Below, one piece after another: positions 33,798 to 56,000 of a DNA stretch of 64,000 nucleotides. Made by a program: the position numbers and the translations under genes. Each line of letters starts with the position of its first letter. The first letter of the stretch is position 1. The DNA is from Patescibacteria group bacterium UBA2773 (lineage in GTDB: Bacteria > Patescibacteriota > Minisyncoccia > Moranbacterales > DUUL01), in NCBI GenBank assembly GCA_002352465.1, contig DEIN01000017.1:64777-128776 (forward strand). Direction: 5' to 3'. The notes under the pieces are model-generated. The model worked only from the letters and a program-made list of their open reading frames with translations, was not told the DNA's origin and searched no databases.

Positions 33798-34451
33798 ATG
33801 AAAAAAATTTTAATAAAAAAAATTTTAATAAATTCTTTGCAAACCATTCTGCTTTTTGCTTTGCTTTTTGGTGGCTTGGTGTCTTTCGAGTATTGGCAAC
33901 AGCAGAATGAAAGTAATAAAATGAGTGCGGTTAATTTGTATCAAAAGGATTCTAGAAAAGGTTTAGTGCAAGTTTTGGGTGAGACTACTAAAGCTGGAGA
34001 AGAATATAGTGGTGAGCGTTTTGTGGCTCAGGACATCGTTTTGGGAAGCGAGGCTTTGATGGCGATGACTGATGATGATCGAACCAGACCAATTGAAATT
34101 TCTCATTTTCAAGGCAAGCTTTTTAGGTCCAGTGAAGATAAAGACGATATTAGTTATTATGCCTCTTGGCAGTCCAATAAGCCGATTTTTTCAACAATCA
34201 GATATAAAGGCGATGAAGATTCAAAGTTTCAAGAAATAGCGGAAAATAATTTTGCTTATGTTCATAGTTTTACTTTGCCTAGTATTGAATTTTCTAGCGT
34301 TTATACTTATGTTATTCAAAGCAAAGATCGTTGGGGCAATGAGGTTGAATCAGATGAATTTGTATTTTATACTGGTCCGCCAGATACTTCTTTCTTCCAA
34401 TTACTGGAAGAATCTTTTAATGATATTTTTGGTTGGACGGTGGGGAAGTAA
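33798..34451 (+). CDS. Hypothetical secreted/membrane-anchored protein
   Basis: The product is 217 aa with an N-terminal TM/signal peptide (LFALLFGGLVSF). There is no recognisable motif. It is bracketed by 20-bp direct repeats. Confidence 0.45.
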   Translation: MKKILIKKILINSLQTILLFALLFGGLVSFEYWQQQNESNKMSAVNLYQKDSRKGLVQVLGETTKAGEEYSGERFVAQDIVLGSEALMAMTDDDRTRPIEISHFQGKLFRSSEDKDDISYYASWQSNKPIFSTIRYKGDEDSKFQEIAENNFAYVHSFTLPSIEFSSVYTYVIQSKDRWGNEVESDEFVFYTGPPDTSFFQLLEESFNDIFGWTVGK

Positions 34452-34539: not shown

Positions 34540-34935
34540 TTGACCACAGTGGAACGGTGGTCGAACCGTGGGAGACTACAAGAGGGAAATAAATTAAATA
34601 ATCAATATTCAACAATTAGCATTCATTCAACATTCAAGGTTCTAAAAATCAAACAACTTAAATTAGTCTAAAAGTTTTTCAAAATTTCCCTCGGTTTGAC
34701 CAGTGTATTCACATCGGTCGAACTGGGGAGGATTTTGTTTCGAAAAAATTTTATGTTAAAATAAATTTACTGAAAATAGCCTTTAATATTTTTGAAATAC
34801 AAAATAAAACATTTTTTTTAAAACTCAAAATTTCCCTAAAAACCTTTCCTCTGGTTTCCACTGGTTGAACCAGTGCACTGGTTCAACCAGTGGAAACCAG
34901 TGTATTCACCTAGGTTGAACTGGGGGAAAAACTTA
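34540..34935. repeat. Non-coding region packed with REP-like palindromes of families 1 and 2
   Basis: 34546-34573 is gcggtttgaccacagtggaacggtggtcgaaccgtggg. 34684-34735 is a family-1 unit. 34858-34893 is the perfect 36-bp palindrome ccactggttgaaccagtgcactggttcaaccagtgg, followed by another family-1 unit. Confidence 0.7.
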
Positions 34936-35324
34936 TTCTTCAAAAAATTAAAATCTTATAGTATACTAGAAATTGAAAACTAGCATTGAAAGTCTAAATA
35001 CAAAATTTAAAAATGTTTTAAAATATTAAATTAAGAACAACAACTAGAAATTAAAAATAATAATTATAAATTGACTAGATTTCCGCTTGCGCGGGAATGA
35101 CAAGCAAGGTAATTGAAAATAATAATTATAAATTATGAATTATGAAACAAAAAATAGAAAATGTTGTTGAAAATAGGAACGGAAAAAACCCCTCGGTCCC
35201 CCTTTGGGAAAGGGGGAGGAGAAAAGAGAAAATTAAAAAACAAATTGGAATTCTAAAGATTTTTTTTCGAAAAAAGATTAAAAAAACAATTACTAGATTG
35301 AAGAAAATTGGGGATTGGGGATTG

Positions 35325-35954
35325 ATGAAAAAACGAAAAATTGTTTCAGTTTTGGGAGTGGTGGTGGTGGGAGTGGTGACGGGATTTTTTTTGGTCTATG
35401 CCCAAGAAATTATTGACAGTTTTACGAGTGATTCAAGCGTGGCAGATACTTGGAACGTGGAAGTGGATACTACGGCAGGAGAAGTGAAATTGGAAGCTCG
35501 GAGTTGTGACAGCGGGACTTGGTTTTGTGGAACTGGTTATGATGATGTTTGCGCTAATACTTTGGGCGATGGGGATTATATTGTGGTGGCTAAAACTGAT
35601 ATTGCAACTACGCAACAATGGAAAAGCGAAAATACAGCTTGTAATCAGTCTCAGTGTGGAATTGATGGTGGGCAAAATGGAGATGAAATGGTAGCAGATA
35701 ATACGGTTAATTTTGCTGATTATCCCGCTCGGCAAGCTTGTAAAGCGATTGGAGGGCGTTTACCAACTAAAACCGAGTTGAGCTATATTTATAGCAATAA
35801 AACTACTTTCGGGGACAATTTCGGCACGAGCTACTATTGGTCCGCCACGGAGTACAATGCTACGAACGCTTGGTACGTGAGATTTTCCGACGGGTATGTG
35901 TCCAGCCCCAATAAGACGAATAGCTTCTCAGTTAGGTGTGTTCTAGGGTGGTAA
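35325..35954 (+). CDS. DUF1566 (Lcl C-terminal domain) secreted protein
   Basis: The start is placed at MKKRKIVSVLGVVVV, a signal peptide. The C-terminus GRLPTKTELSYIY...YYWSATEYNATNAWYVRFSDGYVSSPNKTNSFSVRCV is the DUF1566 signature. The longer ORF starting at 35142 is rejected because it reads through an intergenic repeat. Confidence 0.7.
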   Translation: MKKRKIVSVLGVVVVGVVTGFFLVYAQEIIDSFTSDSSVADTWNVEVDTTAGEVKLEARSCDSGTWFCGTGYDDVCANTLGDGDYIVVAKTDIATTQQWKSENTACNQSQCGIDGGQNGDEMVADNTVNFADYPARQACKAIGGRLPTKTELSYIYSNKTTFGDNFGTSYYWSATEYNATNAWYVRFSDGYVSSPNKTNSFSVRCVLGW

Positions 35955-36166: not shown

Positions 36167-39100
36167 ATGAAATTAAAAATTCAATACAAATTAGCGGTTT
36201 ATTTTTGCTTGAGCTTCCTGCTTTTTGGCGGGGTTTCTTTGGCGCGGGCTGATTATTATGCTCAAGGTACAATGAAATCTACTAATCTTTTGGTGGGTGC
36301 GGAGGTGACGGCCATCAACAGTTTTACGGTTGATTCAACTATTCCAGCCGGAACTACTGTTTCAGTTCAATTTTCCCAAGATCGACATATTTTTTATTCT
36401 TCGGCGGGAACCAAGGGCGGTTGGGATTCTTTGAGCGCCGGAGAGGATGAAGTTGATCTTTCTGGATTGAGCTGGGATGGGGCGGTTTTGTATTATAAAT
36501 TGAAACTAGAAACGACTGATTCTGCTTTGACGCCAGTGGTGAATGATACGACTTTAGATTATACGGGGACGGAAGCCGATGCTCCGGGAGGAACAATTTA
36601 TCATCAAGAAGGAGCGATTGTTTCTACTAATATGGTTGGTAGCACTGGAGAAAGAATTTTGGCTGTTAATAGTATTGATATTACCACTGATATTCCAGCT
36701 GGAACTAGTGTGGCAGCTCAATTTTCAGAAGACGGAGAAAGTTGGTATTCATCTTCTGGAACCGCCAACGGCTGGGATTCTTTGGTTGACGAAGAAAATT
36801 TGATTGATCTTTCGGGGCTGGAGTGGACCAGTTCTCTATATTATAAAGCCAAACTGGAGACCATCGACGGAGCAATGATTTCTAAAATTACTGAAGTGGA
36901 GGTGGATTATGATAGTGGAGGACCGGCTGATCCAGTGGGGTATTGGAGTTTTGATGAGGGGTTTGGGACAACGGCGTATGATGAAAGTTCACAGGGGAAT
37001 GATGGGACGCTGACTAATGGCCCGGTTTGGAAAGATGAGAGTGAGTGTGTCTCGGGAAAATGTCTTTATTTTGATGGAACTGACGACTCCGTCGCAATTT
37101 CCAATTTCCAATTTCCAATTTTCAATCAATTTTCAACTACCCAATTTTTTAATTTTCAAACGCTAGCAGTTTCCAAACCAATCACGGCTCAATGGGGTGA
37201 TAGTCAAAATGCAGTTTTAATAAAATTAGATGATACTAATAGCGATGAAATCAAAGTTTGCATCGCCGACGCTTTAACTGATGATTGCACTAATTATGGA
37301 ATAACTACTGACGCTGATATTTCGGCGAATAGTTGGTATAATTTGCAAATAGTTTATGATGGAGCGGGAAGTGAAAATTCGGACAAAATAAAATTGTATT
37401 TAGACGGAATAGAAAAAACTTTATCTTTCACTGGCACCATTCCGACTGCATTTCCTGAATCAAGTGAAGGATTAGAAATTGGTGGAGACACAGATTTGGC
37501 GACTTATACTAATGGAAAAATCGACGAAGTGAAGATCTATCCGTATGCGAGGACGGCGGGACAGATCAAGCAGGATTATAATGCGGGGCTTTCAGGAGTG
37601 AAATCCAGTCGGGGGACCTCAGTGTCTTTCGGCGGGAAATCAGACAAGTGGATGTCGGATGGGTTGGTGGGACATTGGAAGATGGATGAAGCCAGTTGGG
37701 ATGGAACGGCGGGGGAAGTGCTGGATGCGAGTGGGAATGGGAATGATGGAACGCGAACGGGAGATGCTACTACAGCGGGAGGAAAATATGGCAACGGCGG
37801 AATATTTGATGGAGATGGTGATCTTATTACAAGAGATAGCACAGCAAGTCTAGAACTTACCATGGCGGGAACTATTTCGACTTGGATAAAACAAAGTGGC
37901 GCTGATCAGGATACTTATGCTGGATATGTAGCAAAAACTGTTGGAGGGAATCCTGTAAATGTATCTTATGCTTTATATCACTATGATGATTCTAATGTTA
38001 TTCGAGGTATAATTTGTGATGATAGTGCGTGTGACATTGTGGAAATTCCAGAATTAAGTATGAGTGACACGGATTGGCATCATTTCATTTTTAGTTGGGA
38101 TGGGTCTTCTTTGTATTTATATCAGGATGGAATTCTATTAAACACAGAAACGCAAACAATCGTGCTTGATGTTGAGTCTACTGATAAATTTAAAATAGGG
38201 GGAGACTGTTTTGGTCTTAGTTCCTACTCAGATGATTTTAATGGTCAAATCGATGAAGTGCGGATTTATAATCGGGCGTTGAGTCCTGATGAAGTCAAGG
38301 GGTTGTATGAATACGCGCCAGGGCCAGTTTTGCATTTGAAGATGGATGAGAAAGTGGCGGGGGATGCCCAGACGCTTTATGACATTTCCGGCAATGAAAA
38401 CAACGGCACGACGGTAGACGGCGCCAATGATTCGGGGATGGATTGTTCGGTTTTGGGGAAATACGGCTCGGCTTGTGAATTTGACGGAACGGATGATTAT
38501 GTGGATGTTGGAAATGATGCAACATTGAAACCAGGAGCAAATAATTTTTCAGTAGGAGGGTGGTTTAAGCATGCTGCTGTCGATTCTTTCGAAATTATTT
38601 TTGGAAAGGCAAAAACTATCCCTGTCTATCAACAATGGACGGTTTCATCGGGATCTGTTCAGTCAACAGGCTCTACTAATCCAAGTAAAAGAATTTCAGT
38701 TATGCTGATACATACTGGTGGGAACTTAGTTTTTTCTGCTTATACGGATACCGATATTATTGATGGTAATTGGCATTATGTTTCTTTGGTGAGGGAAGGT
38801 GCAGATTATCCCAAGTTATACATTGATGGTATTGAGCAAGGATTGACGATTACTAAGGCTTGGGGACCTTTTAACTTTGATGTAGATACCGATAATTCCT
38901 TTAAGATAGGAGGTAATGGAGTAAACGCTAATTTTACTGGGCAGATTGATGATGTGAAATATTATAATTACGCGCGGACGCAAAGCCAAATTTTGGAAGA
39001 CATGAATGGGGGAGGTCCAGCAAACAAATCTCCGATTTTGCATTTGAATTTTGATGAAGGGCGGGGAGCGACGGCGTATGATTCTTCCGGATTTTCTAAT

Positions 39101-41068
39101 GATGGAACTTTGATTCCTGGAACCCTCGGAACTAACACCACTGTTTCTTCAATGTGGGATAAAAATGGGAAAATGGGTGGGGCGATGGAGTTTGATGGGA
39201 GCGATGATTATGTTGAAATCCAAGATACTGCACTATTTATTGATATGCAACAGTATACTTTGTCTGCGTGGATTAATCCAGTAATTTTAGATACAAGTCA
39301 AAGACAAGGGATTATGGGTTGGGGATTGTATGGCACTCAACGAGCAGTCAATGCTCTTAGACTTGTGGAAAACTCAGTTTGTCCTGGCGGAGATGGTTTG
39401 GTTAATTATTGGTGGAGTGATGATTTTAGGGAATGTAATTTGGGATTGTCAGTGGGAGAGTGGAACCATGTGCTCGTAACATATAATGGTTTTGAAAGGG
39501 CTATGTATGTGGACGGAGAATTAAAAAACACTAATACTCCGACAGGCAGTCCAAGTTTTAAAGACGGAAAATTTACAGTTGGAACAACAGGGGAAGGGGA
39601 AGTAGCAGATTTTAAAGGTCAAATCGACGAAGTGAAGGTTTGGAATTATGCTTTGACGGAGGATGAGGTGAGGCAGGAGTATGCTAATTCGGGTTCGGCG
39701 GTTTCGATGGGAGGGGAGAGGGCTGAGGCGAGTGATGACGGGACAGAAGTGGGAGGATTTTCTAGTAAATATTGTATTCCCGGTGATACCGCCAAATGCT
39801 CTCCACCGGTTTTGGAACTTTCGATGGATGAAAAATCTGGCACAACAGCCTATGACACTTCGGGGAACGGCAATGACGGAACTTTGACTAATGGTCCGAG
39901 TTGGGTGCGAGGAAAATATGGTAGTGCTTTGGATTTTGATGGGGTGGATGATTATGTGGACTTAGGCACATATCCAAAAATAAGTTCAGAAGATACTGTT
40001 TATACTATTTCTGCGTGGATGAAATCTTCTAGCGATAATTCAATAGGGATTTCCAGAGGAAATTCAGGAAATTGCTATTATAATCCTTCTGTAACTTTAA
40101 ACTCTGTAAATGAGAGTGGATGTTCTGGATTGAATCAACTATTGCTTGGAACAAACACGGATGGCTTGTGGCACAACGTTACTGCTGTGCGGAGTGGCGA
40201 TGATTTTAAAGCATATCTTGACGGAAAATTAATGGCTTCAAAAATTATTGCCTCTCACGGCCTGACAGACTCTACTTTTACTCCTGAGGCTCGGATAGGT
40301 TCGTACTATAAAAGTATTGGAAGTAGTTTTAAAGACGGCATTGTCGATCAAGTTGTTGTTTATGACTACGCGCGGACGCCGGCGCAGATTGCTTGGGACT
40401 ATAATCGCGGGAAACCGGTGGCCCATTGGAAAATGGACGAAGGGACAGGAACGACGGTTCACGATGAAAGCGGGAACGATAACGACGGCACTATGACCAA
40501 TATGGACGCCAACACTGATTGGGTTGACGGTCATTCGGGAGAAGCCTTGGATTTTGATGGAGCAGATGATTATGTTGAAATAGCAAATTCAAGTATTTGT
40601 AATATTAATGAAGAGTTAACAATTTCTATGTGGGTAAGACCTGCGATTGTATACGACTCTTCATTATCTGATTATAGAGTAATGCTTGATAGACAATGGA
40701 CTGCGGAAAATGATTCATATTTTTTTGGTTTTAATGCTGATGGCAAAATGCATTTAGGTTCAAACGGAGGAAGTATTCAATCGACTCAAAGTGTTTGGAA
40801 TGCAAATCAATGGTATTTTATTACTGGAACATATAGAGATGTGGGAGGCGTTTATAGTGGTGAGCTCTATGTAGATGGAGTTTCGGAGGTGCTATCTATC
40901 GATAATTATGATGATATGGAAGGAGGAAGTAATAGTATCGGCATTGGGGGGTCTGATCGTTTTGATAAATTTAATGGTCAAATCGACGATGTTCAAATTT
41001 TTAACTACGCTTTGACAGAAGAACAAATCAAAAATCTTTATAACGGAAGCGCGATGAGGTTTGAGTAG
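36167..41068 (+). CDS. Giant (1633 aa) secreted protein composed of ~8-9 tandem LamG/concanavalin-A-like lectin modules
   Basis: It has a signal peptide. The repeated module signature is Y/HWxFDEG.GTTAYD.SGNGNDGTLTNGP.W..GK.G.AL.FDG.DDYV...FxGQIDEVRIYNRALS..EV, the classic LamG_3 pattern. Confidence 0.75.
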   Translation: MKLKIQYKLAVYFCLSFLLFGGVSLARADYYAQGTMKSTNLLVGAEVTAINSFTVDSTIPAGTTVSVQFSQDRHIFYSSAGTKGGWDSLSAGEDEVDLSGLSWDGAVLYYKLKLETTDSALTPVVNDTTLDYTGTEADAPGGTIYHQEGAIVSTNMVGSTGERILAVNSIDITTDIPAGTSVAAQFSEDGESWYSSSGTANGWDSLVDEENLIDLSGLEWTSSLYYKAKLETIDGAMISKITEVEVDYDSGGPADPVGYWSFDEGFGTTAYDESSQGNDGTLTNGPVWKDESECVSGKCLYFDGTDDSVAISNFQFPIFNQFSTTQFFNFQTLAVSKPITAQWGDSQNAVLIKLDDTNSDEIKVCIADALTDDCTNYGITTDADISANSWYNLQIVYDGAGSENSDKIKLYLDGIEKTLSFTGTIPTAFPESSEGLEIGGDTDLATYTNGKIDEVKIYPYARTAGQIKQDYNAGLSGVKSSRGTSVSFGGKSDKWMSDGLVGHWKMDEASWDGTAGEVLDASGNGNDGTRTGDATTAGGKYGNGGIFDGDGDLITRDSTASLELTMAGTISTWIKQSGADQDTYAGYVAKTVGGNPVNVSYALYHYDDSNVIRGIICDDSACDIVEIPELSMSDTDWHHFIFSWDGSSLYLYQDGILLNTETQTIVLDVESTDKFKIGGDCFGLSSYSDDFNGQIDEVRIYNRALSPDEVKGLYEYAPGPVLHLKMDEKVAGDAQTLYDISGNENNGTTVDGANDSGMDCSVLGKYGSACEFDGTDDYVDVGNDATLKPGANNFSVGGWFKHAAVDSFEIIFGKAKTIPVYQQWTVSSGSVQSTGSTNPSKRISVMLIHTGGNLVFSAYTDTDIIDGNWHYVSLVREGADYPKLYIDGIEQGLTITKAWGPFNFDVDTDNSFKIGGNGVNANFTGQIDDVKYYNYARTQSQILEDMNGGGPANKSPILHLNFDEGRGATAYDSSGFSNDGTLIPGTLGTNTTVSSMWDKNGKMGGAMEFDGSDDYVEIQDTALFIDMQQYTLSAWINPVILDTSQRQGIMGWGLYGTQRAVNALRLVENSVCPGGDGLVNYWWSDDFRECNLGLSVGEWNHVLVTYNGFERAMYVDGELKNTNTPTGSPSFKDGKFTVGTTGEGEVADFKGQIDEVKVWNYALTEDEVRQEYANSGSAVSMGGERAEASDDGTEVGGFSSKYCIPGDTAKCSPPVLELSMDEKSGTTAYDTSGNGNDGTLTNGPSWVRGKYGSALDFDGVDDYVDLGTYPKISSEDTVYTISAWMKSSSDNSIGISRGNSGNCYYNPSVTLNSVNESGCSGLNQLLLGTNTDGLWHNVTAVRSGDDFKAYLDGKLMASKIIASHGLTDSTFTPEARIGSYYKSIGSSFKDGIVDQVVVYDYARTPAQIAWDYNRGKPVAHWKMDEGTGTTVHDESGNDNDGTMTNMDANTDWVDGHSGEALDFDGADDYVEIANSSICNINEELTISMWVRPAIVYDSSLSDYRVMLDRQWTAENDSYFFGFNADGKMHLGSNGGSIQSTQSVWNANQWYFITGTYRDVGGVYSGELYVDGVSEVLSIDNYDDMEGGSNSIGIGGSDRFDKFNGQIDDVQIFNYALTEEQIKNLYNGSAMRFE

Positions 41069-41167: not shown

Positions 41168-41424
41168 TTTCGGAAATAGAACATACTATAGAAAAGAAGT
41201 AAATTCAAAATTAAGCATCATTTATAAATTACAAATTATAAATTAATTCGAAATACGAGGATTTGTATTTTAGGTTGATTAGATTTCTGTTTATTTTCGC
41301 TAAATCCGCCTGCCAGTAGGCAGTACTATGGTGAGGCAAGCCTGAGCAGAAATGAAAAAATAAGAGAACAAGCGATAGAAAATATGAACACAACATTTTT
41401 CTATCGGTTTCTCCCACTGGTCTC

Positions 41425-41460
41425 CCACTGGTTGAACCAGTGCACTGGTTCAACCAGTGG
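41425..41460. repeat. REP (family 2) perfect 36-bp palindrome upstream of the RAYT gene
   Basis: ccactggttgaaccagtgcactggttcaaccagtgg. A half-copy tctcccactgg precedes it. Confidence 0.85.
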
Positions 41461-41596
41461 GAATTAAAAAATTGATAATAAATTCAAATGTTCTCAGTTT
41501 TTTTGTTTCAATTTAATTAGAAAGATAGTTTAGGGGATAGTTTGTTGATTGAGTCTTGGTTTCAGTTGAATAACTAATTAAATTAAATCAAATCCA

Positions 41597-42253
41597 ATGA
41601 AAAAAGAACTTTTTTGGGGAGATTGTTATCATATTTTTAATAGGGGTGTAGAAAAAAGAAAGGTTTTTTGTGATAAATATGATTACAAAAGATTTATTGA
41701 CAGTATGAAAGAATTCAACAACCACGAAGTTGGATCTTTGCGAGATAGATTAGATTCAAAATTTTCCACTGGTCCAACCAGTGCACTGGTTCAACCAGTG
41801 GAAGAAGAAAAGCTGGTTGAAATAGTAGCTTATTGCTTGAATGCTAATCATTATCATTTAATTTTAAAAGAAGTTTCTGAAGATGGTATTGCAAAATTTA
41901 TTCAAAAAATAGCAACAGGTTATACTCGATATTTTAATGAAAAGTATAAAAGAACAGGTGGTTTATTTCAAGGTCGGTATAAAAGAGTCGAAGTGGAATC
42001 GAACCCGCAATTGCTTTATTTGTCGGCTTACGTTAATGGAAATCATTACATTCATAAAATTAAAGAACTTGAGAGTTGGGAGTTTTCAAGTTTGCCAGAA
42101 TATTTGAAAAATAAAAAAAATGGATTTTGTTTTAAGAACGATATTTTAGGTCAATTTAATAATAGTGGAGAAGATTATTTAAAATTTTGCAAGAAAAATT
42201 GTGATGACATAAAAGAGAAAAGAGCTTTCTCTAAATTTTTGTTAGAAGAATAA
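41597..42253 (+). mobile_element. REP-associated tyrosine transposase (RAYT, IS200/IS605-like Y1 HUH transposase)
   Basis: The product is 218 aa with the HUH motif NHYHLIL, then GGLFQGRYKRV...LLYLSAYV, which matches the G-LWQ-RY / catalytic Tyr region of RAYTs. REP palindromes lie upstream, inside and downstream of the gene. Confidence 0.7.
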
Positions 42254-42276
42254 GGTGCGTTTCGTTTGTTGATTTT

Positions 42277-42312
42277 CCACTGGTCCAACCAGTGCACTGG
42301 TTGGACCAGTGG
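42277..42312. repeat. REP (family 2) perfect palindrome 24 nt downstream of the RAYT stop
   Basis: ccactggtccaaccagtgcactggttggaccagtgg. Confidence 0.85.
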
Positions 42313-43015: not shown

Positions 43016-46000
43016 TTGTCAAAAATGAATTTAGTTCAAACAAAAATAATAGAAAAAATAAAGGCTAATTTTAGCCAAAAACGAGAACTAATTCTTGGTA
43101 AGGGAGGTGATTTTGTTATGGTCTTTTTTGCTGTTTTTTTAGGCTTTATTTTGTTTTCAATACCAGCTGAAGCTTCGATTGCCATGGATCTTTCAATGTT
43201 TGTTCTTGATAAAGAAACTAACAAACCTTTGGAGGGGGTTCAAACAGTAATTTTTTCAATTTATCCGGAAAATTCAGAGATTGCAATTTGGCAAGAAACT
43301 CAAGAAATTGAGCTGAATTTTGGTTTGATTCGAACTGCTTTAGGTGAAATAAATGTTTTGCCTTTGAATTTAAACATGCTTGACAATAATTATTATTTGG
43401 GAATAAAAATTGGAGATGATAAAGAATTGGTTCCAAGAAAAAGAATTTCTCCGAATTTGTTTGCAGTTTCTTCTGCTTATGCTCAAAATGCTGGAAGTTT
43501 AAACGGCAGTGTTATTGGTGAAAATGAAGGCAACTTGATGCTATTGGGAAAAGGCGGAGAAGTAGATTCAAAATTTTTGTCTAGTGATCTTTCTTTGCTA
43601 GGAGACGAAATCGATATTTCTTCTGAAACAAACTTGGGAGTGGCTGGTTCATTATTGACGCTTAGTGGTGACAATCTTTCAGTTAAAGAAGGAGTTTTGA
43701 CGGATGGAAGATTCTGTACTTACAGTACTACTAATGGATTGGTTTGTGATACCGATGGGGGGGCAATTACTCATGATGAAGTGACATTGAGTAATTCTCC
43801 CGGAATTTATGATTATTTAACACTTTCCGGACAAGCTTTGACACTCGACCAAATTGATTTGACTACGGATGTCAGCGGAATTCTTCCTGATGTAAATGTT
43901 GCTAATAATTTGACTATTGACGGCGGATTGATTTTTGGTACTGATTTAGACTTGAAAACTGGAACTGATATTACCGAGGGTAGAATTCAGTGGGATGCTA
44001 CAACTGATAGAATTGTGGTTGGAACTGGAAGCGATTTTACGACTTTTTATTCTGGATCAGGAGCAGGTGGAATTGCTGGAAGTGGAATAACAAATCATTT
44101 GGCTTATTGGTTGGATTCAAACACCTTAACTTCAACTGGTGGATCCGCTAGTCAAATGTTAATAAATAATGCTTCAAGCGTTCCAACTTTTGTTTCAATC
44201 GGTGGTGACATTGCAATAACTTCCGGCGGATTAACTAGTATTCAAGCTGATTCAGTGGCGTTAGGAACCGACACGACTGGCAGTTATGTTCAATCAATCA
44301 CCAATGGCAATGGAATTAGCGGAGCCGACGGTGGTTCGGAATCAGCCATTTTAACTTTAGCAATCGACGCTACAACAACTGGAACGACTGTCACAACTGC
44401 TTCTAATTCTGGTTTAGAAACTACTGCTGATGGTTTGAGAATAATTGGAGGTTGTAGCGATGGTCAAATTTTGACTTGGAATTCTTCACTTGAAGTTTGG
44501 TCTTGCAATAATAATACAGGGGGAACAAGTAATTGGACGGATAGTGGAAATTTGACATTTTTAACAAATACTACCGACGATTTTGCTATTGGTGGAGGAA
44601 CTTTGGCTTCAGCAATGTTCGCTATTGATGAAAGTGCTGGTAATTTCTACTTCGCTTCTGACAACAGTGCTAATCCAACTTTCTTGTTTGAAGCGACTGA
44701 TTCAGATACGGGAAGTTTTGGATTTAATACGAATGACGCTTTCTATTTCTCAGATGCGAATGTGGGAATCGGAACAACAGATCCATCAACATTTTTTGAG
44801 GTTGCTACTACTGCCAGATTTTCTGGTTCTGTTGATGAAACTGCTTTGGGGTTGGATCGAATTGACATCGGGGTTCAAAATGGAACACCAAGAATGGTTT
44901 TTGAAGACAATAGCTATACTAGATGGGAAATTGATAATTCAGAAGGAGTCTTCAGGTGGTTTACTCCTGGATTTGAAAGGCTAACCTTAGACGCGAGCGG
45001 AAATATGAATTTAGTGACTGGAAATTTAGAGATAGGATCAGTTAGTGTTTTGACAAGTGCTCGACAATTACAAAATTTAACAGGGCTAGCTTCTTCTGGA
45101 ACAATTACTTTTTCTGGTTTAACTACCGATGGAGTTGTCACAGTTTCTTCTGGAGCTCTTTCAAGTGAAGCTCAATTAGCAATATCTCAAGGTGGAACCG
45201 GAGCTTCTTTGACTGACCCAAATGACGACCGAATTATGTTCTGGGATGACACAGCTGGAGCTGTCACTTGGTTAGACTTAGGAGCCAACTTGACTATTAC
45301 TGGCACTACCATTGCAGCTACTGACACTAACACTACTTACACCGCTGGAATCGCTCTTGATCTAAACTCTACTACTTTTGATGTTGATTTAAGCGAATTA
45401 ACAACTTCAACCGCTGATATTGATGGAGATTACTTTGTGGTAATAGACACTTCCAACGCTCAAAAGAAACTAACTAAAGCTAATATTGCTTTAAGTGGCT
45501 TTGATAATGACTTAGGTTGGACTACTAGTACTGGAGATATTACAAGTGTTGTCGCCGGAGCTGGACTAACTAACGGAGGAACTTCTGGAGATGTCACTCT
45601 TAACATCGGCGCTGGAACAGGAATTACCGTTAATGCTGATTCGATTGAAGCGACTTTGGGAACAGCGATTGAAAAAGGAGAACTAGTCAATTCTGGAAGT
45701 CTGTCCTTTGATTGGCTCGACAGTGAAGTTGCTAATAGCTTGACTATTACTGGTGGAACGATTGACGCTACTACTACGATCGACAAAGACCCAGTGATTA
45801 CCTTGGGAACAGACTTGACTGGAAATGTCACTTTGTCCAACCTAGCTTCTGGAACTTTAAATGCCACAATCGTTGCTAATTCAGTAGCCTTAGGAACCGA
45901 TACTACTGGAAATTATGTCTCAACCATCACTGGTGGAACGGGAATTGATTCAACTGGAGCGACTTCTGGAGAAAATATCGTTCATTCTTTGAGTGTTAAT

Positions 46001-49000
46001 ACAACTGAGATAGGAACAACAACTTGGTTCGACAAAACCGCTGGAACTGACATTCTTTGGAAATTTGATGGAGAATCTAATGATGGAACATTTGGGTATT
46101 ATGAAGATGAAGACGCTTTTGGGTTTACTAATTCAAGCGTTGGGATTGGAACAACCAATCCAACCGCTAAACTTCAAATCGCTGCTGGAACTACTTCGGC
46201 TGGTTCAGCACCTTTGAAATTAACCAGTGGAGATTCAATGACCACCGTCGAAGCTGGAGCTTTAGAATATGACGGATCTAAGCTTTATTTCACTCCAGTT
46301 GGAACCAGAGAAACAGTGGCTTACATCTCAGACATCACTGGAGCCGCTCACCCAGCAGTGACCATCGGAACAGCCAGTGGTTTAAGCATCGATGGTTCTC
46401 AAGTTCTTTCACTTGGATTAGCTTCATCCGGTGTCACTGGTGCTTTAAGTGGAACTGATTGGGATACTTTTAATGCTAAACAAGTCGCTTTAACTATTGG
46501 AGATTTATCTGGAATGGCTGATCAAGTGACTGTTGCAAATGGAGCTGGATCAATCATTGGTTCAGGCGTGACTTTGAGTTTGCCACAATCGATTGCGATA
46601 ACTTCAACTCCAACTTTTGGAGGGTTGACTTTGACAACTGATCTTTCAGTGGACAACGGTGGAACTGGCACTTCGACTTTCACTTCAGGTGGAATGCTCT
46701 ATGGTAATGGAGCTTCGGCGATTGGAGCGACGGCAGTTTTAAGCAATGGTCAACTTTTGATTGGAGATGGTTCTGGCGTTCCAACTTTGACGACTTTGAC
46801 GGATGGAACGGGAATCACTATTACCGAAGGGGCCGGTTCAATCACAATTGCCTCAACTTTGGGAGAGACTATTGAAACGGGAGAAATAACTAATGATTCA
46901 ATTTTGGAAGTTGATTTTGATGTGACAAATGTTGCAACTGATAATTATATTTTGAGTTATGATTCAGATTCTGGCGGTTTCACTTGGATTGATAACACTG
47001 GAGGAACAGGGGCTTCTAAATGGACTGATGATGGAACTTTCAGTTATTTGACGGAAACGAATGACGATTTGGTTATCGGTGGATCCACAACTTCTGCTCC
47101 TTTATTCTTCGATTCTTCTGAAGCGACACTTTCTTTGGGCTACAATGGAACTTCGGGCTCTTTGTCTCTTTATAGTGAAGTGGGTGGGACTGATTATACT
47201 CTTAAATTCCAACCAAGTTCTTCAATGACTCAAAATGTTACTTATATGATGCCTGTTGACGATGGAACTTCTGACCAAACTCTTATTACTAATGGAGCTG
47301 GAGTTCTTGCTTGGGGAACCGTAACGGAAATTAGTGGAGCTGGAGACATTACTGCTATTGGAGACGTTTCCACCGGATCAGCTTTTACTGCCACTGGGAC
47401 TCAAGGAACTTCCCTTTATTTTTATGATGCTGATGGTCGAGGTCAATTGAAAACGGCCGACCTCACCGCCGCTAGAACCTATACATTGCCAGATGCCACT
47501 GGAACAATGGCTTTAACTTCGCAATTGCATGACGCAGTGACCATCGGAACAGCCAGTGGTTTAAGCATCGATGGTTCTCAAGTTCTTTCACTTGGCTTAG
47601 CTTCATCCGGTGTCACTGGTGCTTTAAGTGGAACTGATTGGGATACTTTCAACAACAAACAAACAGCTGGAAATTATCTTACCGCTTTAACTGGAGATGC
47701 GACTGCTACTGGACCAGGATCAGCAGCAATTACTTTGGCTACTGTAAATTCCAACATTGGAGTCTTTAACAATCTTACGGTTAACGCTAAAGGTTTAGTG
47801 ACTGGAGCTTCGAATGTTGCTTATCTTACCAGCTATACTGAAACTGATCCGATATACATAGCTTCACAAGCTCACAACATTGATGCGACTGATATTGCTA
47901 ATCTTGGAAATCTTTCTGGAACTAATACTGGAGATATTACTTTAGCTGGAACTCTAGATTACTTGACTTTAAGTGGACAACAAATAACCAGAGGCTTAAT
48001 TGATTTAACCACAGATGTTTCTGAAATTTTACCAATTACTAACGGTGGAACTGGTGCTTCAAGTTTGGCTGATTTAATCGCACTAGGAACCGACACTACT
48101 GGAAATTATGTTAAATCAATCACTAACGGCAATGGAATTACTGGCGGAGATGGTGGTTCTGAATCAGCTGTTTTAACAATTGCAATTGATGCTGATACTA
48201 CTGGAACAACGGCAACTACTTATTCTAACTCTGGTTTAGAAGCCACTGCCGATGGACTAAGAATAATAGGGGGTTGTTCAACTGGTCAAATTCTGACTTG
48301 GGATGCCTCGGATGTTCGTTGGGAATGTACTACTAATACAGCTGGATCAAGTGATTGGACAGATACTGGAACTTTGACTCACTTGACCGACACTGCCAAT
48401 GACTTTGCAATTGGTGGAACTTCATTGGTTGCTTCAATGTTTGCGATTGATGAAAGTGCTGGTAATTTCTACTTCGCTTCTGACAACAGTGCTAATCCAA
48501 CTTTCTTGTTTGAAGCGACTGATTCAGATGCGGGAAGTTTTGGATTTAATACGAATGACGCTTTCTATTTCTCAGATGCGAATGTGGGAATTGGCGACAC
48601 TTCACCGACGGCTCTTTTCACGGTTGGAACCGCGGATGCCTTTCAAATAGACGCTTCTGGAAACGTGACAACTTCAGGAACAGTGGAGGGTTTGACTCTA
48701 GCTTCAGCGGAGGATGGTTTCACAATTGCTGGTGGAACAACTTCTAGAACTTTAACCATCGCAGGAGATGACGTTTCGATTAATCAATCTTTACTGACAA
48801 CTTCCGCTCCAACCTTTGTTACTTTAAACACTGGCAACGGAGATTATGAGCTTTTCGCAATGAATCAAGATGTTGAAACCACTGATTCGGTCACCTTTAC
48901 CGGTTTAACTTTGAGCGGATTAACTCAAGGTTCAGTGCCATTTATCGGAGCCAGCGGAGTAGTTAGTCAAGATAATTCCAATCTTTTCTTTGATGATACT

Positions 49001-52000
49001 AACAAACGATTAGGAGTGGGAACAGCGACGCCAACCACTGGTTTAGAGCTTTATGGTTCAACGGTCGACACAATTTTCACGATTACTTCGGCTAGTGATA
49101 CTTATAATCCAATGATGCAATTTAGGTCTGGGGCGACTCCTTCAGTTGGATTCTCTTTAGGAATGGACAACTCTGACAGTGATAAATTCAAGATTTATCC
49201 AGGGGATGACATTGCTGGAACTAGTATCTTTACCATGGATTCAGTTGGAAAAACTTCTATTTCTAATCTTCAATTAGGAAGTCAATCTTTCGCTGATGAT
49301 TCAGGAATAATTAGTTGGATTGATATGGCCGTCACCAGTAGTGCAGTTGATGACACGGTTGAATCCTATACTGCAATGCTGGATGGAAATGCGATGATAA
49401 CAGTTTATGGACTTTCTGACGGAGCCGGTGGAGTCGATAATTTGGGAGTTGGTATTAACACTGCCACGCCAACGGCCAGACTTCATCTTCCAGCGGGAAC
49501 AACCACTGCCGGTACGGCACCGTTGAAACTAACCAACGGAGATATAATGACTGCTGGAGAAGCTGGAGCTTTAGAATATGACGGATCTGAGCTTTATTTC
49601 ACTCCAAGTGGAACTACTCAAGAAACTGTGGCTTATGTTTCAGATATCACAGCTAGCGCCGTTTCTTTGACTAATTCTCCTGGAACTTATGATTATCTAA
49701 CTCTTTCTGGTCAAGCTATTACTCTAGCTCAAATTGATTTAACCACTGACATTACTGGAATTTTGCCAATGGCCAACGGTGGAACCAACAAAAATATGAC
49801 CGCTTCTGCTGGTTCAATTGCTTATTCTGACTCTGATTCTCTTGAATTTTCCGCCGTCGGAACTGCTGGTCAAGCTCTGATCTCTGGTGCTACTGGCGCT
49901 CCAACTTGGTTTGCTCCAACGGCTGGATCGCTCTTATTTGCTGGAACTTCTGGAATTCTTCAACAAGACAACGCAAGCTTATTCTTCGACGATACCAACA
50001 ACCGATTAGGAATTGGAACCGCTACGCCAAGTTATACATTAGACATTAATGGAGCTAGCGGGGTGACGGATTTATTCCAAGTGGCTACTAATGGCACTAG
50101 CGTTTTAACTGTGACGGACACTCAAACTACTTTTGATAATCCAGTTAATTTCGCCAATGTCGGAGATGTTTCAATGGCTTATGACTTGTTGATGACCAAT
50201 GCAACGGCGGGGAATATTAAATTCTCGGGACCGGGTTATGTTCAAACTGACAGCGCTTGGCAGAATTTGGATTTGACTTTGAACGCCGCTAATGATGGAT
50301 TTGTGGTAGTGGATGATACTTTACAAAATGCGCTAGATTTAACCACTACCACTGCTGGAGACTACTACGGTTTCTTAGGTGATGTTAACTCTACTGGAAT
50401 TTTCACCGCTGATACTACGAATACTTACGGAGTTTATGGAGATGCTTCCTCAACTGGAGTGTCAACTGGTGGAACAGTCAACACTTATGGCGGATATTTC
50501 ACTGCTACCGGAGAAAGCACTGGTGCTGCCACTACTAATGCTTATGGTTTGTATGTGGATGGAGCAACTGGCGCTGACAATAACTACAGCGCGGTGTTTG
50601 AGAATGGGAATGTCGGAATTGGCGACGCTACTCCTTCTGCCCTTTTAACCGTTGGAACTAGTGACGCTTTCCAAGTAGATAGCTCTGGAAATTTGACAAC
50701 GACAGGAACAGTGGAGGGTTTGACTCTAGCTTCAGCGGCGGATGGTTTCACAATTGCTGGTGGAACAACTTCAAGAACTTTGACTATTACTGGAGCGGAT
50801 GTTTCAATTAATCAATCTCTGCAAACAACTGATGCTCCAACTTTTGCTACTTTAAACACTGGTCAAGGAGATTATGAACTTTATGCGATGAATCAAGATT
50901 TGGAAACGACTGATAGTCCGAGTTTTGTTTCGCTTGATCTTCAAGAAGCGGGAACAGCTAAAGTTAATACCGATATTTTCTCGATTACCAATTCTGGCAA
51001 TGCAGTTGATATGGATGGAACTTTAAGTTCAATTCTTTTCAATCAATACTATTATGATGCTTCCACTCCAGCGGTGGCGGATGCCGGACGAATTTCAATT
51101 GGAACGGAAACTGACTGGACTTCAACTGCTTCCACTCAAGATTCATACCTTTCATTATCAGTGGCTGTTGATGGGACTTTGACTGAATATGCCAAATTGA
51201 CTAGTGCTGGATATTTCAATATCTATGATTCAACTGGAGCTGATTATGTTTCCATTTATCACGATGGAATGGATGCTCAAATCAGCACCAACACTGGTTC
51301 AATTGAAATTGGTTCTTCTGGAGATTTTGTGATTGACAGTGGTGTAAATGTTGGAATTGGTGGGGTGACCAGTTTTGGAACCAGTGCTGATAATGTTTTA
51401 GCAATTGCTTCGAGCACGGCGCCAACTACTTCAATTACAGATGGGGTTCAGCTGTACAGCATTGAAGCCACTGGCTATCATCGACTATATGTTCGAGATG
51501 AAGAAGGGAACGCTACTCCTGTTTCTCCTCATGATTTTTCCTTATTGCCTGAAGATGAAATAAGAGAATCTTTGTCTTGGTCTTACTATTCAGAAAAAGA
51601 TGATTCGGCAATTAATGTTGATATGACTAAAGCAATCAGACTAATCGAACAAATTTCTGGTGAAAAATTGATTTATAAGGTTGACTTGTTGACTGGTTTG
51701 GAACTTGTGGAAGAAAATCTTGATTTGGAAATAGATTCAGAATTCTTGTTTAGTGAAGAACAACAACAGGCAATTACAGTTCTTACTAATAATCTTGAAA
51801 CTTTGCAAACTGAAACGACTGACACGCAAGCCCGATTGATTGAAATAGAAACTTTGGTTGAAAGTTTGACTTCATTTGACAGTTTGGCGGCTGAACAACT
51901 TTCTTCTCAACAACAAAGAATTAACGCTTTGGAAATCGCAATTGAGACTGGAATAATCCCAGATGCTGAAAAATTCTCAGTTGACGCCGAGGGCAATGTC

Positions 52001-53032: not shown

Positions 53033-56000
53033 ATGAATAAATTAAAATACACAATCTATTTTTTGATTTTTGGAATAGCAACATTGACAGCTAATCAAAC
53101 TCAAGCTGTTTACCTCGTTGCTGGGCGAAAAAAGTTTCGGTTTGGATTATTCTTGATTTTTGCTGTTTTCTTTTTTGGTCTAGCTATAGCCTCGCCGACT
53201 TTTGCTGCTACTTGCAACGATCAAGCGGATGGAAATTGGAACTCGGCGGCGACTTGGGATTGTGGGATTGTTCCGGATGCCGATGATGATGTGACGATTG
53301 ATTCGCATACGGTGACGATGACGGCCGATTCGCTTTCCAATACTGTCACGATTTCTGGTGGGACTTTATCTTCTGGCAATTATAAAATTATTACTAAGGA
53401 TTTTGTGCAAACGGGAGGGACGGTTTCGATGGGGTCGGGAGCGATGAAAGTGGCGGGGGATTTCACTAGGATGGGAGGGATTTTCACGGCGGGGACGAGT
53501 GTGGTTTCGTTGGTGGGAGTGGATCAAACCATTGACGTGACAGGAGCACCGACAACATTTTATAAACTTTATAAACTTACTAATTCGGCGGATACTTTGA
53601 CTATCACCGCTGGGAATGAATTGATGATTGCGTCAGGTGGGGTGATGCGGTTTTGGGGAAAACCAGAATCAAAAACTTTATCCATTGTTTCTTCCAGTCC
53701 TGGAACTTCCTACACTATTACTCGAATGGGAACCGCTGAACTAGAATACACCGATTGGTCGGATGCGACTTGGTCTGCTTCTCAAACAGTGGCGGCTTCT
53801 AGTTTGGGAACTGGAAATACTAATTTGACCGTGACAAAAGAATTTATTTCGACTATCAGAGCAACGGGTGGAGATTATTCCTCTTTGTCTTCTTGGGAAT
53901 CAGCCAATCAAACTGATTTAACGGCGACGACTACCAAAGTTTTTTCTCACGGCGGAATTACTGGCACCATCGCTGACACCGACACAATCACTGGTTCAAC
54001 CAGTGGAGCGACCGCTAATGTTGTCCACGCCACCACAACTCAAATACTTCTTGAATCAATTTCTGGTACTTTCCAATCTGGCGAGCAAGTTCAAGTGGAT
54101 GCCTCTAACCTCGTCACGATTTCGGACGCCGGCTTCGGCGCCATTTCCACGGCGGAATGCTACAACGATTGGCCGAGCGGGTTGGTGGAAGATTATGTGT
54201 CAATTTCTGGTTGGACAACGGGTAAAAATAATTATGTAAAAGTTTATACACCTCAAGGTCAACGTCACAACGGTGTATTAAAAAATGAAAGTGGAAATTA
54301 TACAGGTTTTACAATTAAACAAACAAATTATTCTGGTAAGACCTCGGTTTTTGGTAACGAACAAAATTATACGATTATTGATGGGATAATTATAGTTGCT
54401 GCTGAAAGTCAGGTTTCCTACGGGATTTCGAGTGAAGTCGCATATTCCACTGTGAGTAATAATATTGTTTACAGGGAGGTTGGTACAGGACAGCAAGGAA
54501 TAAGATTTTATACGACAGCAAGTGTCGGTTCGTATATTTTTAATAATATTGTTTATGGATCTGACAGTAATAATTGGGAAATTTGTTTTATGGGTTGCAA
54601 GGGAGAGGTATATAATAACGTGGCTTATGAGTGTGATTATGGGTTTGTTAATTATTCTACTTACGATAATGAATTGACAAATAATAGTGCATTCAATAAT
54701 AATATTTATGATTTTGGTGGTTCTGTTAATGCAATTATTTCAAATAGTATATCAAGTGATGGCACAGCTGATGATTTTGGGGGTAGCGATAATATTGTAG
54801 ATGCGACTTTGGCTGATCTAGATTTTGTCTCGACTACGTCTGGATTAGAGGATTTGCACATTGAAACAGATTCGGTGGCCCGAAATGAGGGATTGGATTT
54901 GTCGGTTGATCCTGATTATCCATTAGTTTCTGATATTGACGGAGATTCAATGCTGGGGTTTGCGGAGTGGTCGATTGGGGCAGATCAATATTCTGATTTT
55001 GACTATTCTTCCCTTAGTCCGACTGATGGAAATAAATCGGTGGCGGTGGGAGCGGATTTTGTGATGAATTTCTCAGAAAGTGTGACAGCCCAAGCGGGAA
55101 AATATATTTATATTAAACGAGAAGATGATGACTCAACGGTTTTTGCGATTGAAGCTGACGACACCACCCAAGTTTCGGGTTCGGGCACGGTGCAAATCAC
55201 TGTCAATCCAGCCGAGAATTTGGAAGCGGGAACAAAATATTACGTCACAATGGACAGGAGTTGTTTTATAAATGTTTATTTGCACCAAAACGCGGTGATT
55301 TCCGACAGCATCGAGTGGAATTTTCAGACTGCGTCTTTTGATTGGCATGATAAGTCTTGGACTAAACGCAAAAAAATCACCATTGACGAGGGGGAAGTCT
55401 CGGGTGGGCAAACTGATTTTCCGGTTTTGCTTTCCGTGACGGACACTGATTTCAAAGACCACGCTCAAACTGATGGCAATGATTTTTTCTTGACTGACAC
55501 CGCTGGCAACCAACTTCCGCACGAAATCGAATCCTACACCGCCTCAACTGGTGAGTTGGTTTTGTGGTTTAAAGCCTCCTATCTTTATGACACCTCTGAC
55601 ACTCATTTCTATGTATATTATGGCAATTCGTTGGCAGATGATCAGCAAGACGCGGAGAATGTTTGGGATGAGAATTACAAAATGGTTCAGCATATGGATG
55701 ATACTACAACGTCAACTATCACTGATTCAACGGCTAATGATAATGATGGAACAAAATATGCAGTTAATGAACCAGCGGCGGGAACAGGATTATTGGCTGA
55801 TGGCTTAGTTGGAAAGGCACAAGACTTTGATGTGGTTGACGATGTGGTTAATTGTGGCTCTGGAGCATCTATTGATGATATTTTTGCTGGTGGTGGAACT
55901 GTTCAATTCATAATGAAGCCACAAGGTTGGGGTGAGTTTGAATATGGAAGAGTCTTAGATAAGGGTCCCGATGCTTCTAATTTAACATCTACACAATTTT

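Follow-up and report, generated by a model that had tools for sequence, protein, structure and literature searches.

A RAYT-like transposase gene of Patescibacteria with a copy of its cognate repeat in its reading frame

A 64,000-nt stretch of contig DEIN01000017.1 from the Patescibacteria group bacterium UBA2773 (hereafter the window) contains a gene for a REP-associated Y1 transposase (RAYT)-like protein that is bracketed by copies of a palindromic repeat of the REP (repetitive extragenic palindrome) type and carries a further copy, in frame, within its own coding sequence. How does such a repeat come to lie in the gene for its presumed mobilizing enzyme, and how is it maintained there? The comparison of this locus with its relatives suggests that it probably represents a REPtron-like system of Patescibacteria, in which a doublet of the cognate REP entered the gene early in the history of the clade and has since been kept in step with the local REPs. 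The gene and its repeat copies are arranged as follows (folding energies refer to single-stranded DNA).

34851..34900, no strand assigned: distal REP doublet, perfectly palindromic over 50 bp, with a core (34858-34893) that repeats the 5′ copy exactly; fold at -28.3 kcal/mol, z -10.3
41423..41462, no strand assigned: 5′ REP doublet, a 40-bp perfect palindrome with its core at 41425-41460; fold at -21.5 kcal/mol, z -8.8
41597..42253, forward strand: RAYT-like HUH/Y1 transposase gene, intact, 218 aa, with the HUH motif at N84-H85-Y86-H87 and the catalytic tyrosine Y145
41766..41801, forward strand: in-frame REP doublet, its long palindrome interrupted by two central mismatches; fold at -14.8 kcal/mol
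42277..42312, no strand assigned: 3′ REP doublet, a 36-bp perfect palindrome; fold at -19.8 kcal/mol

The gene and the repeat copies around it

Each of the four copies consists of two 17-nt hairpin units of the form CACTGGT-NNN-ACCAGTG, in which only the 3-nt loops vary (TGA/TCA in the 5′ and distal copies, CCA/TCA in the internal copy and CCA/TGG in the 3′ copy). The window contains nine such units, compared with 0.05 expected from shuffled sequences, and its palindromes fold as single-stranded DNA at -15 to -28 kcal/mol, far below shuffles. The internal copy forms an island of 58% GC in an open reading frame (ORF) whose remainder has 27% GC. It is a mosaic of the two flanking copies, with its left half and the five bases upstream of it matching the left half of the 3′ copy and its right half matching the right half of the 5′ copy. 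The distal doublet is situated in the gap between ORFs 33798-34451 and 35142-35954. Since the identical arrangement is found in two independent assemblies, L001 (ENA) and L002 (JGI), it does not represent an assembly artefact.

A preliminary description of this region had reported four copies of one perfect 36-bp palindrome. The four sites are real, but the 36-mer that it quoted matches exactly only at 34858-34893 and 41425-41460. The copies within and 3′ of the ORF are not the same palindrome as this 36-mer: the former (CCACTGGTCCAACCAGTGCACTGGTTCAACCAGTGG, 41766-41801) deviates from it at two positions and lacks perfect symmetry, whereas the latter (CCACTGGTCCAACCAGTGCACTGGTTGGACCAGTGG, 42277-42312) shows four differences and is yet a perfect palindrome in itself, so that perfection applies to the 5′, distal and 3′ copies but not to the internal one. 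The perfect palindromes at 41423-41462 (40 bp) and 34851-34900 (50 bp) are longer than quoted, and the reported spacings of 137 and 24 nt were close approximations, with the 5′ copy ending 136 nt before the ATG and the 3′ copy starting 23 nt after the stop codon. The essential observation, a gene bracketed by cognate palindromes (doublets 41423-41462 and 42277-42312) with another one in frame (41766-41801), was borne out, as was the translation of the internal copy without a break, because ORF 41597-42253 remains open across 41766-41801 and reads straight through it as ..KFSTGPTSALVQPVEEEK... A promoter and terminator scan gave results no better than shuffles, with no terminator-like tail after the palindromes, and an Rfam search with the palindromes returned only sub-threshold matches to generic hairpins (miRNA precursors).

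The gene product is probably, as part of the REPtron-like reading, a single-strand-DNA HUH/Y1 endonuclease-ligase of the RAYT type, as predicted from its domain and fold matches. It contains a Pfam Y1_Tnp domain (PF01797; E 2.2e-10, 41.2 bits at a cut-off of 23). An AlphaFold2 model built on 32 homologues is confident apart from residues 41-70 (predicted local distance difference test score, pLDDT, 85; predicted template modelling score, pTM, 0.82), and its top fold match in the PDB is 4er8_A (E 1.6e-5; target-normalised TM score 0.65). This structure, showing E. coli TnpA-REP with a REP hairpin, outranks those of the IS608 and ISDra2 TnpA proteins. A sequence search of the PDB with the family profile returned no relative even at E 10, so that the link to solved structures is made through the fold search only. 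In a profile alignment (hhalign) with E. coli RayT, N-H-Y-H pairs with E-H-M-H, Y145 with Y115 and W-x-F-S-S with W-P-F-S-T. Aligned with 31 homologues from the database, the window protein shares H85, H87, Y145 and 31 further columns with all of them. The assignment to RAYT-like HUH/Y1 transposases made in the preliminary description is thus upheld by the PF01797 match, the 4er8 fold match and the alignment of the HUH motif and Tyr145 with E. coli RayT; the loss of the HUH/Tyr residues, which it had named as a possible objection, is not seen. Because the ORF is intact and these residues are invariant, the gene is not a pseudogene.

The internal REP doublet encodes residues 57-68 (STGPTSALVQPV), which lie in the α1-β2 loop of the protein, between helix α1 and the strand leading to the HUH motif. 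This loop comprises ~31 residues, compared with ~4 in E. coli RayT, and is disordered in the AlphaFold2 model, with pLDDT values of 53-56 for residues 51-70.

Internal palindromes across the clade

The database contains 525 relatives of the protein that are similar in length, mostly labelled Moranbacteria, Parcubacteria or Patescibacteria, and all of the aligned relatives are variable in the stretch that corresponds to the internal palindrome. To this position we turned with 80 homologous loci from species-representative genomes, which together with the window make up a set of 81 RAYT loci (the window and L003-L082), and scored GC-containing perfect palindromes with stems of at least 7 bp in their ORFs. 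Such palindromes are confined to residues 54-75 (loop 1; up to 62/81 per column), residues 153-164 (~6/81) and a few single-locus positions at the C-terminus; the conserved core of the 81 ORFs contains none by this criterion. Loop 1 carries a palindrome in 67 of the 81 ORFs (83%), all from metagenome-assembled genomes (MAGs) of Patescibacteria, with stems reaching 26 bp and many inserts representing perfect palindromes of 33-52 bp. All 81 tblastn matches pass through the loop in a single frame. The palindromes have a median GC content of 50%, against 32% in the remaining ORF, and exceed it in 66 of 67 cases. E. coli rayT proved uninformative as a negative control, since the perfect-stem criterion also misses its known imperfect flanking REPs.

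The loop-1 palindromes of different loci are unrelated in sequence, but each tends to match its own surroundings: a palindrome arm recurs in the flanks of its own locus in 47/67 cases, compared with 3.1% of 4422 cross-locus pairs. Usually, loop 1 contains one hairpin and two more bracket the gene, at a distance of 20-50 nt from the ATG and 1-36 nt from the stop codon. Paralogues from the same MAG, which are ~45% identical, differ in their hairpins, with the internal copy of each gene corresponding to the hairpins of that gene, and even the closest homologues, L003 and L004 (65% identity), carry different palindromes in the same loop. Internal hairpins of the single type have a matching flanking copy in 31/32 cases, typically on both sides of the gene, whereas long internal doublets have one in only 16/35 (Fisher p 2.5e-6). 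A chance resemblance of native coding sequence to the repeat is ruled out by the shuffles and by this locus-specific matching. Similarly, the suspicion that homologues without any REP might share the 12-residue segment does not apply, because each homologue has its own palindrome-encoded peptide. The in-frame position, previously thought unusual, is the norm in this clade, and in-frame REPs in tnpA-REP genes have in fact been published before (PMC6006769).

Outgroup RAYTs with 36-38% identity (L086, L089/L090, L092 and L093) also have hairpins of matching sequence next to the gene, and in L086, L089/L090 and L093 on both sides of it, but lack a palindrome in loop 1. In two further loci, the loop contains an imperfect GC-rich palindrome (L094) or a decayed remnant, the latter accompanied by a palindrome in loop 2 (L091). 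The intragenic copy is thus derived, being a trait of a clade that comprises ~170 clusters at 50% identity. The second in-frame site, just after the helix with the catalytic tyrosine, is occupied at aa 211-222 in L091 and at ~aa 152-177 in L030, L058, L064, L071, L073 and L080; in L071, one hairpin sequence occupies both loops.

Several groups of loci provide a record of how the internal copies change. In a subclade of nine loci, a hairpin of the form TTCCTAAAGC-nnn-GCTTTAGGAA is found at the same codons (aa 64-67), with flanking hairpins at -28..-50 and +1..+8, and stem variants such as AAGC/GCTT, AAAC/GTTT or AAGG/CCTT are common to the internal, flanking and distal copies of one locus. Among the 27 copies of this subclade, 96% of the alignment cells are paired and two pairs show double-sided changes (11 cells), giving a covariation score that none of 500 shuffles reached. 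The stems thus evolve by compensatory changes, which recur in the flanking copies. The orthologous 50-52-bp doublets of L018, L020 and L065 likewise differ only by substitutions mirrored on both arms. In the wider DGLM subfamily, an ancestral doublet encoding NPxAxLxDF and LKLSFRK can be traced while it erodes. Lineages differ in whether its left half, its right half or both have decayed, and the gene remains intact; the peptide motif NPxAxLxDF persists as the doublet halves erode. None of the 67 palindromes has a stem that continues through an isolated mismatch, including G-T, so that their symmetry looks like the outcome of copying at the DNA level rather than of selection on RNA folding. 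This absence argues weakly for DNA-level symmetry, and a test for asymmetry between G-T and A-C mismatches could not be scored, as the stems are essentially free of internal mismatches. Loop length increases with the span of the palindrome (Spearman 0.58). Two more specific roles for the hairpins, as operators for a dimeric repressor or as stems that sequester the Shine-Dalgarno sequence (AGGA in the TTCCTAAAGC family), were discarded as explanations of general validity, given that hairpins from different loci show no relationship in sequence.

The presence of repeats within and behind the gene may also have destructive consequences. In L003, a relic RAYT copy (800-1010) is located 2 kb upstream of the full gene (2955-3665). 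It comprises the 5′ half of the RAYT gene up to the internal REP and then continues with sequence from beyond the 3′ REP of the full copy, and thus represents a deletion from REP to REP that has removed the catalytic half. The duplication also includes sequence beyond the 3′ REP.

Away from the RAYT regions, ORFs show a ~9-fold depletion of palindromes (49 in the 79% of sequence that is coding, compared with 117 in the remaining 21%), which makes the RAYT ORF an exceptional host, although a few cognate doublets nonetheless lie inside other ORFs. Across 59 loci, distal cognate copies occur at a density of 0.53 per 10 kb. The window contains two further minor elements.

41411..41419, no strand assigned: stuttered partial arm CCCACTGGT, just 5′ of the upstream doublet, read directly
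53989..54005, forward strand: lone hairpin unit B (loop TCA) inside the 1581-aa ORF 53033-57778, translated ITGSTSGA

The lone unit is likely, but not proven, to be a member of the repeat family and may have arisen by in-frame REP insertion, by conversion or by a chance choice of codons; a similar peptide, STGATSGE, is encoded at 45950 without a palindrome. Nested partial arms like that at 41411-41419, three per side, also surround the doublet of L085 (88-160), which suggests that existing copies have repeatedly taken up insertions or undergone slippage. A second palindromic family, AAAACCCCCTCGGTCCCCCTT-nnnnn-AAGGGGGAGGA, is found in the N-terminal part of ORFs, where it is translated as ..PSVPLxxGG... 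It is present in the window at 35180-35220 (ORF 35142-35954) and recurs in unrelated genomes (L003 509-529, 1136-1155 and 1181-1200; L045 6066-6086). The RAYT gene itself is situated among very large ORFs (36167-41068, 1633 aa; 43016-52318, 3100 aa; 53033-57778, 1581 aa), which probably encode giant surface proteins; the first of them has Laminin_G_3 domains.

Origin and maintenance of the internal copy

These observations are most readily accommodated by a scenario in which a REP or REP doublet entered this permissive loop in frame early in the clade, probably through action of the RAYT in cis on the surrounding DNA. The internal copy would then have remained identical to the active local REPs, either because the RAYT excised and re-inserted it or through conversion of short tracts, while selection on the transposase would preserve the reading frame only and leave the encoded peptide free to vary. 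Once the cognate REP of a lineage changed, or one half of the doublet was no longer matched, the corresponding part would decay to ordinary loop sequence. Recombination between the internal and 3′ copies can, to judge from the relic, delete the catalytic half of the gene. A function beyond mere tolerance, for instance in autoregulation, is possible but not required by this scenario, and unproven.

Several results sit uneasily with it. The protein scores only 27 bits against the NCBIfam RAYT equivalog NF047646, below the cut-off of 80, and is a distant relative of that curated family. The REP of the window has only two other sites in 64 kb, and a metagenome scan for the doublet yielded a single further locus, L085, which belongs to another organism and shows no RAYT gene in the 6.5 kb examined around the doublet. 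The retention of a palindrome in 83% of a clade that spans 41-65% identity, together with perfect stems of up to 26 bp, exceeds what simple tolerance would lead one to expect, and the 19 of 35 long doublets without flanking copies show that homogenisation with neighbours cannot account for all cases. Moreover, the internal palindromes use all three reading frames and variable offsets, which argues for turnover rather than for one inherited insertion. Taken together with the inherited positions, the history of the internal copy reads as one of turnover alongside inheritance.

The main rival explanation, which we consider less probable though by no means negligible, holds that the internal palindrome is a cis-element under selection, serving either as an autoregulatory, self-limiting site or as a gene-linked master copy. 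In its autoregulatory version, the RAYT would bind or cut its own hairpin, or the hairpin in the mRNA would stall ribosomes or be cut by RNase III, thereby keeping expression low; in its master-copy version, the co-inheritance of the RAYT with a REP doublet would be guaranteed. Such a role would fit the near-universal retention of the palindrome at one loop (67/81), the strongly stable folds of the single-stranded DNA, the perfect symmetry and compensated substitutions in the orthologous doublets of L018, L020 and L065, and the persistence of internal doublets without flanking copies at 19/35 loci. The absence of the element from outgroup RAYTs that do possess flanking hairpins likewise counts in favour, as it is thus not an automatic by-product of nearby REPs. 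However, the position and frame of the palindrome vary, with further sites at residues 153-164 and at the C-terminus, and one or both halves have decayed in several lineages (L050, L075) while the gene stayed intact. The lack of stems that run through isolated mismatches in the 67 palindromes fits copying at the DNA level better, the copy in the window is followed by no terminator-like U-tract, and its A-B combination of loops recurs in no outside copy in the window, so that it is not the evident source of the others. It is nevertheless tempting to speculate, if with considerable doubt, that the doublet in the ORF is a built-in substrate copy that couples the transposase to its repeats. As a feedback site, it would make the L003 relic one outcome of a RAYT acting on its own gene; as a master copy, it would allow the REP population to be re-seeded after transfer or loss and explain the long doublets that lack flanking copies.

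By comparison, it is improbable that the locus is an autonomous insertion sequence of the IS200/IS605 type, with the flanking palindromes as its left and right ends and the internal copy as a nested end. While the Y1_Tnp domain, the hairpins directly up- and downstream of the gene in most loci and the low density of distal copies (0.53 per 10 kb) would be compatible with this idea, TnpA-REP (4er8) is the structure that the model matches best, with the TnpA proteins of IS608 and ISDra2 behind it, and no identical gene copies were found among the loci examined, with paralogues from the same genome being ~45% identical and associated with different hairpins. The flanks, moreover, consist of one symmetric palindrome whose orientation is freely flipped, rather than of distinct left and right ends, isolated doublets lie far from any RAYT (34851-34900; L085), and the L003 relic shares sequence beyond the 3′ REP, indicating that the copied unit is not bounded by hairpins. 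More improbable still is the original suggestion that the internal copy reflects a recent self-insertion tolerated in a loop or marks an inactivated pseudogene. The GC-rich REP island (58%) in a 27% GC gene, a loop that is long in comparison with E. coli RayT and the existence of REP-REP deletion relics could be taken in its favour. Yet, the ORF is intact, its HUH and Tyr residues are invariant, and the gene is identical in independent samples; throughout the set, all 81 ORFs are open across the loop, which speaks against a pseudogene. A recent event is contradicted by the presence of a palindrome in the same loop in 67/81 homologous ORFs and by L003 and L004, which at 65% identity already have different palindromes there. 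In addition, position and peptide motif are inherited across subclades, as illustrated by the position shared within the nine-locus subclade.

Relation to known systems and implications

In-frame REP insertions have been described within tnpA-REP genes of subclass 2.4 and some members of subclass 2.8, the latter with an HYH motif, and were viewed as neutral insertions into a peripheral region (Quentin et al., 2018, BMC Genomics 19:475; PMC6006769). The clade studied here resembles these subclasses in combining a Y1 HUH gene and cognate flanking REPs with frame-preserving internal copies in a peripheral variable region. It shares the H-Y-H form of the HUH motif with subclass 2.8 (NHYHLIL in the window protein) and, in several members, fully palindromic "double-foot" REPs with subclass 2.4 (e.g., GTAGGGATCCGATCCCTAC in L056), a likeness at the level of described features. 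Double feet of the form GTAG..CTAC are present in L056, L063, L059, L061 and L066; the unit of the window, (C)CACTGGT..ACCAGTG(G), has no 5′ GT[AG]G or CGTC foot, and the 218-aa window protein lacks the proline-rich N-terminus that marks subclass 2.8. Unlike in subclasses 2.4 and 2.8, the main insertion site is located at residues 54-75 in the α1-β2 loop, upstream of the HUH motif (84-87), with a minor site at residues 153-164, downstream of Y145. Furthermore, the hosts are Patescibacteria instead of Cyanobacteria or Bacteroidetes, the occupancy within the clade reaches 83%, and many inserts are doublets that lack any spacer and are perfect over 33-52 bp.

Palindromic elements are also found in frame in unrelated genes, as in the case of the Rickettsia palindromic elements (RPEs) and of intragenic GTAG/CGTC REPs (Di Nocera et al., 2013, PMC3733652). 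Here, too, a short palindromic repeat is translated within a loop or linker of an apparently functional protein, but the host gene encodes the presumed mobilizing enzyme of the repeat, and the site is conserved and co-evolves with the flanking repeats of that enzyme. Like in REPINs (REP doublets forming hairpins; Bertels and Rainey, 2011), two inverted REP units form one long hairpin whose arms evolve symmetrically. Classical REPINs, however, lie outside genes, have spacers of tens of nucleotides and go with Group 2 and 3 RAYTs of Proteobacteria, whereas the spacers in the present clade measure 0-7 nt and one of the copies belongs to a coding sequence. Intragenic copies are not mentioned in the papers by Bertels and Rainey that we checked. 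A search of the literature found no paper linking RAYTs with Patescibacteria.

The REPs of E. coli are imperfect, carry a GTAG tag and number in the hundreds. The window protein and E. coli RayT have in common their fold, the alignment of the HUH motif and catalytic tyrosine, the W-x-[FY]-S-[ST] motif after the Tyr helix and a REP-bracketed gene. Their sequence identity, by contrast, is only ~14-20%, and the window protein has an extra helical C-terminal region of ~65 aa. E. coli rayT has an α1-β2 loop of four residues and no REP annotated inside. The E. coli RayT/TnpA-REP REPtron (structure 4ER8) is associated with the work of Ton-Hoang (2012) and Messing (2012).

Collectively, the phenomenon is known in kind but differs from earlier reports in its site upstream of the HUH motif, its phylum, its near-universal occupancy and its perfect zero-spacer doublets, as well as in the documented co-variation, decay and deletion of the internal copies.

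The RAYT-REP association serves as a model for the long-term coexistence of a domesticated transposase with non-autonomous repeats. To our knowledge, how the specificities of enzyme and repeat stay matched is poorly understood. The clade described here offers dozens of natural enzyme-hairpin pairs, several of them orthogonal within one genome, in which each gene carries its own substrate copy, and thus a compact data set from which recognition rules may be derived. REP turnover is directly accessible as well, with decay series, half-swaps and REP-to-REP deletions all being visible, and one can put to the test whether a REP inside a gene regulates the enzyme that mobilizes it. As the comparison also shows, such systems are common in the tiny, gene-dense genomes of Patescibacteria.

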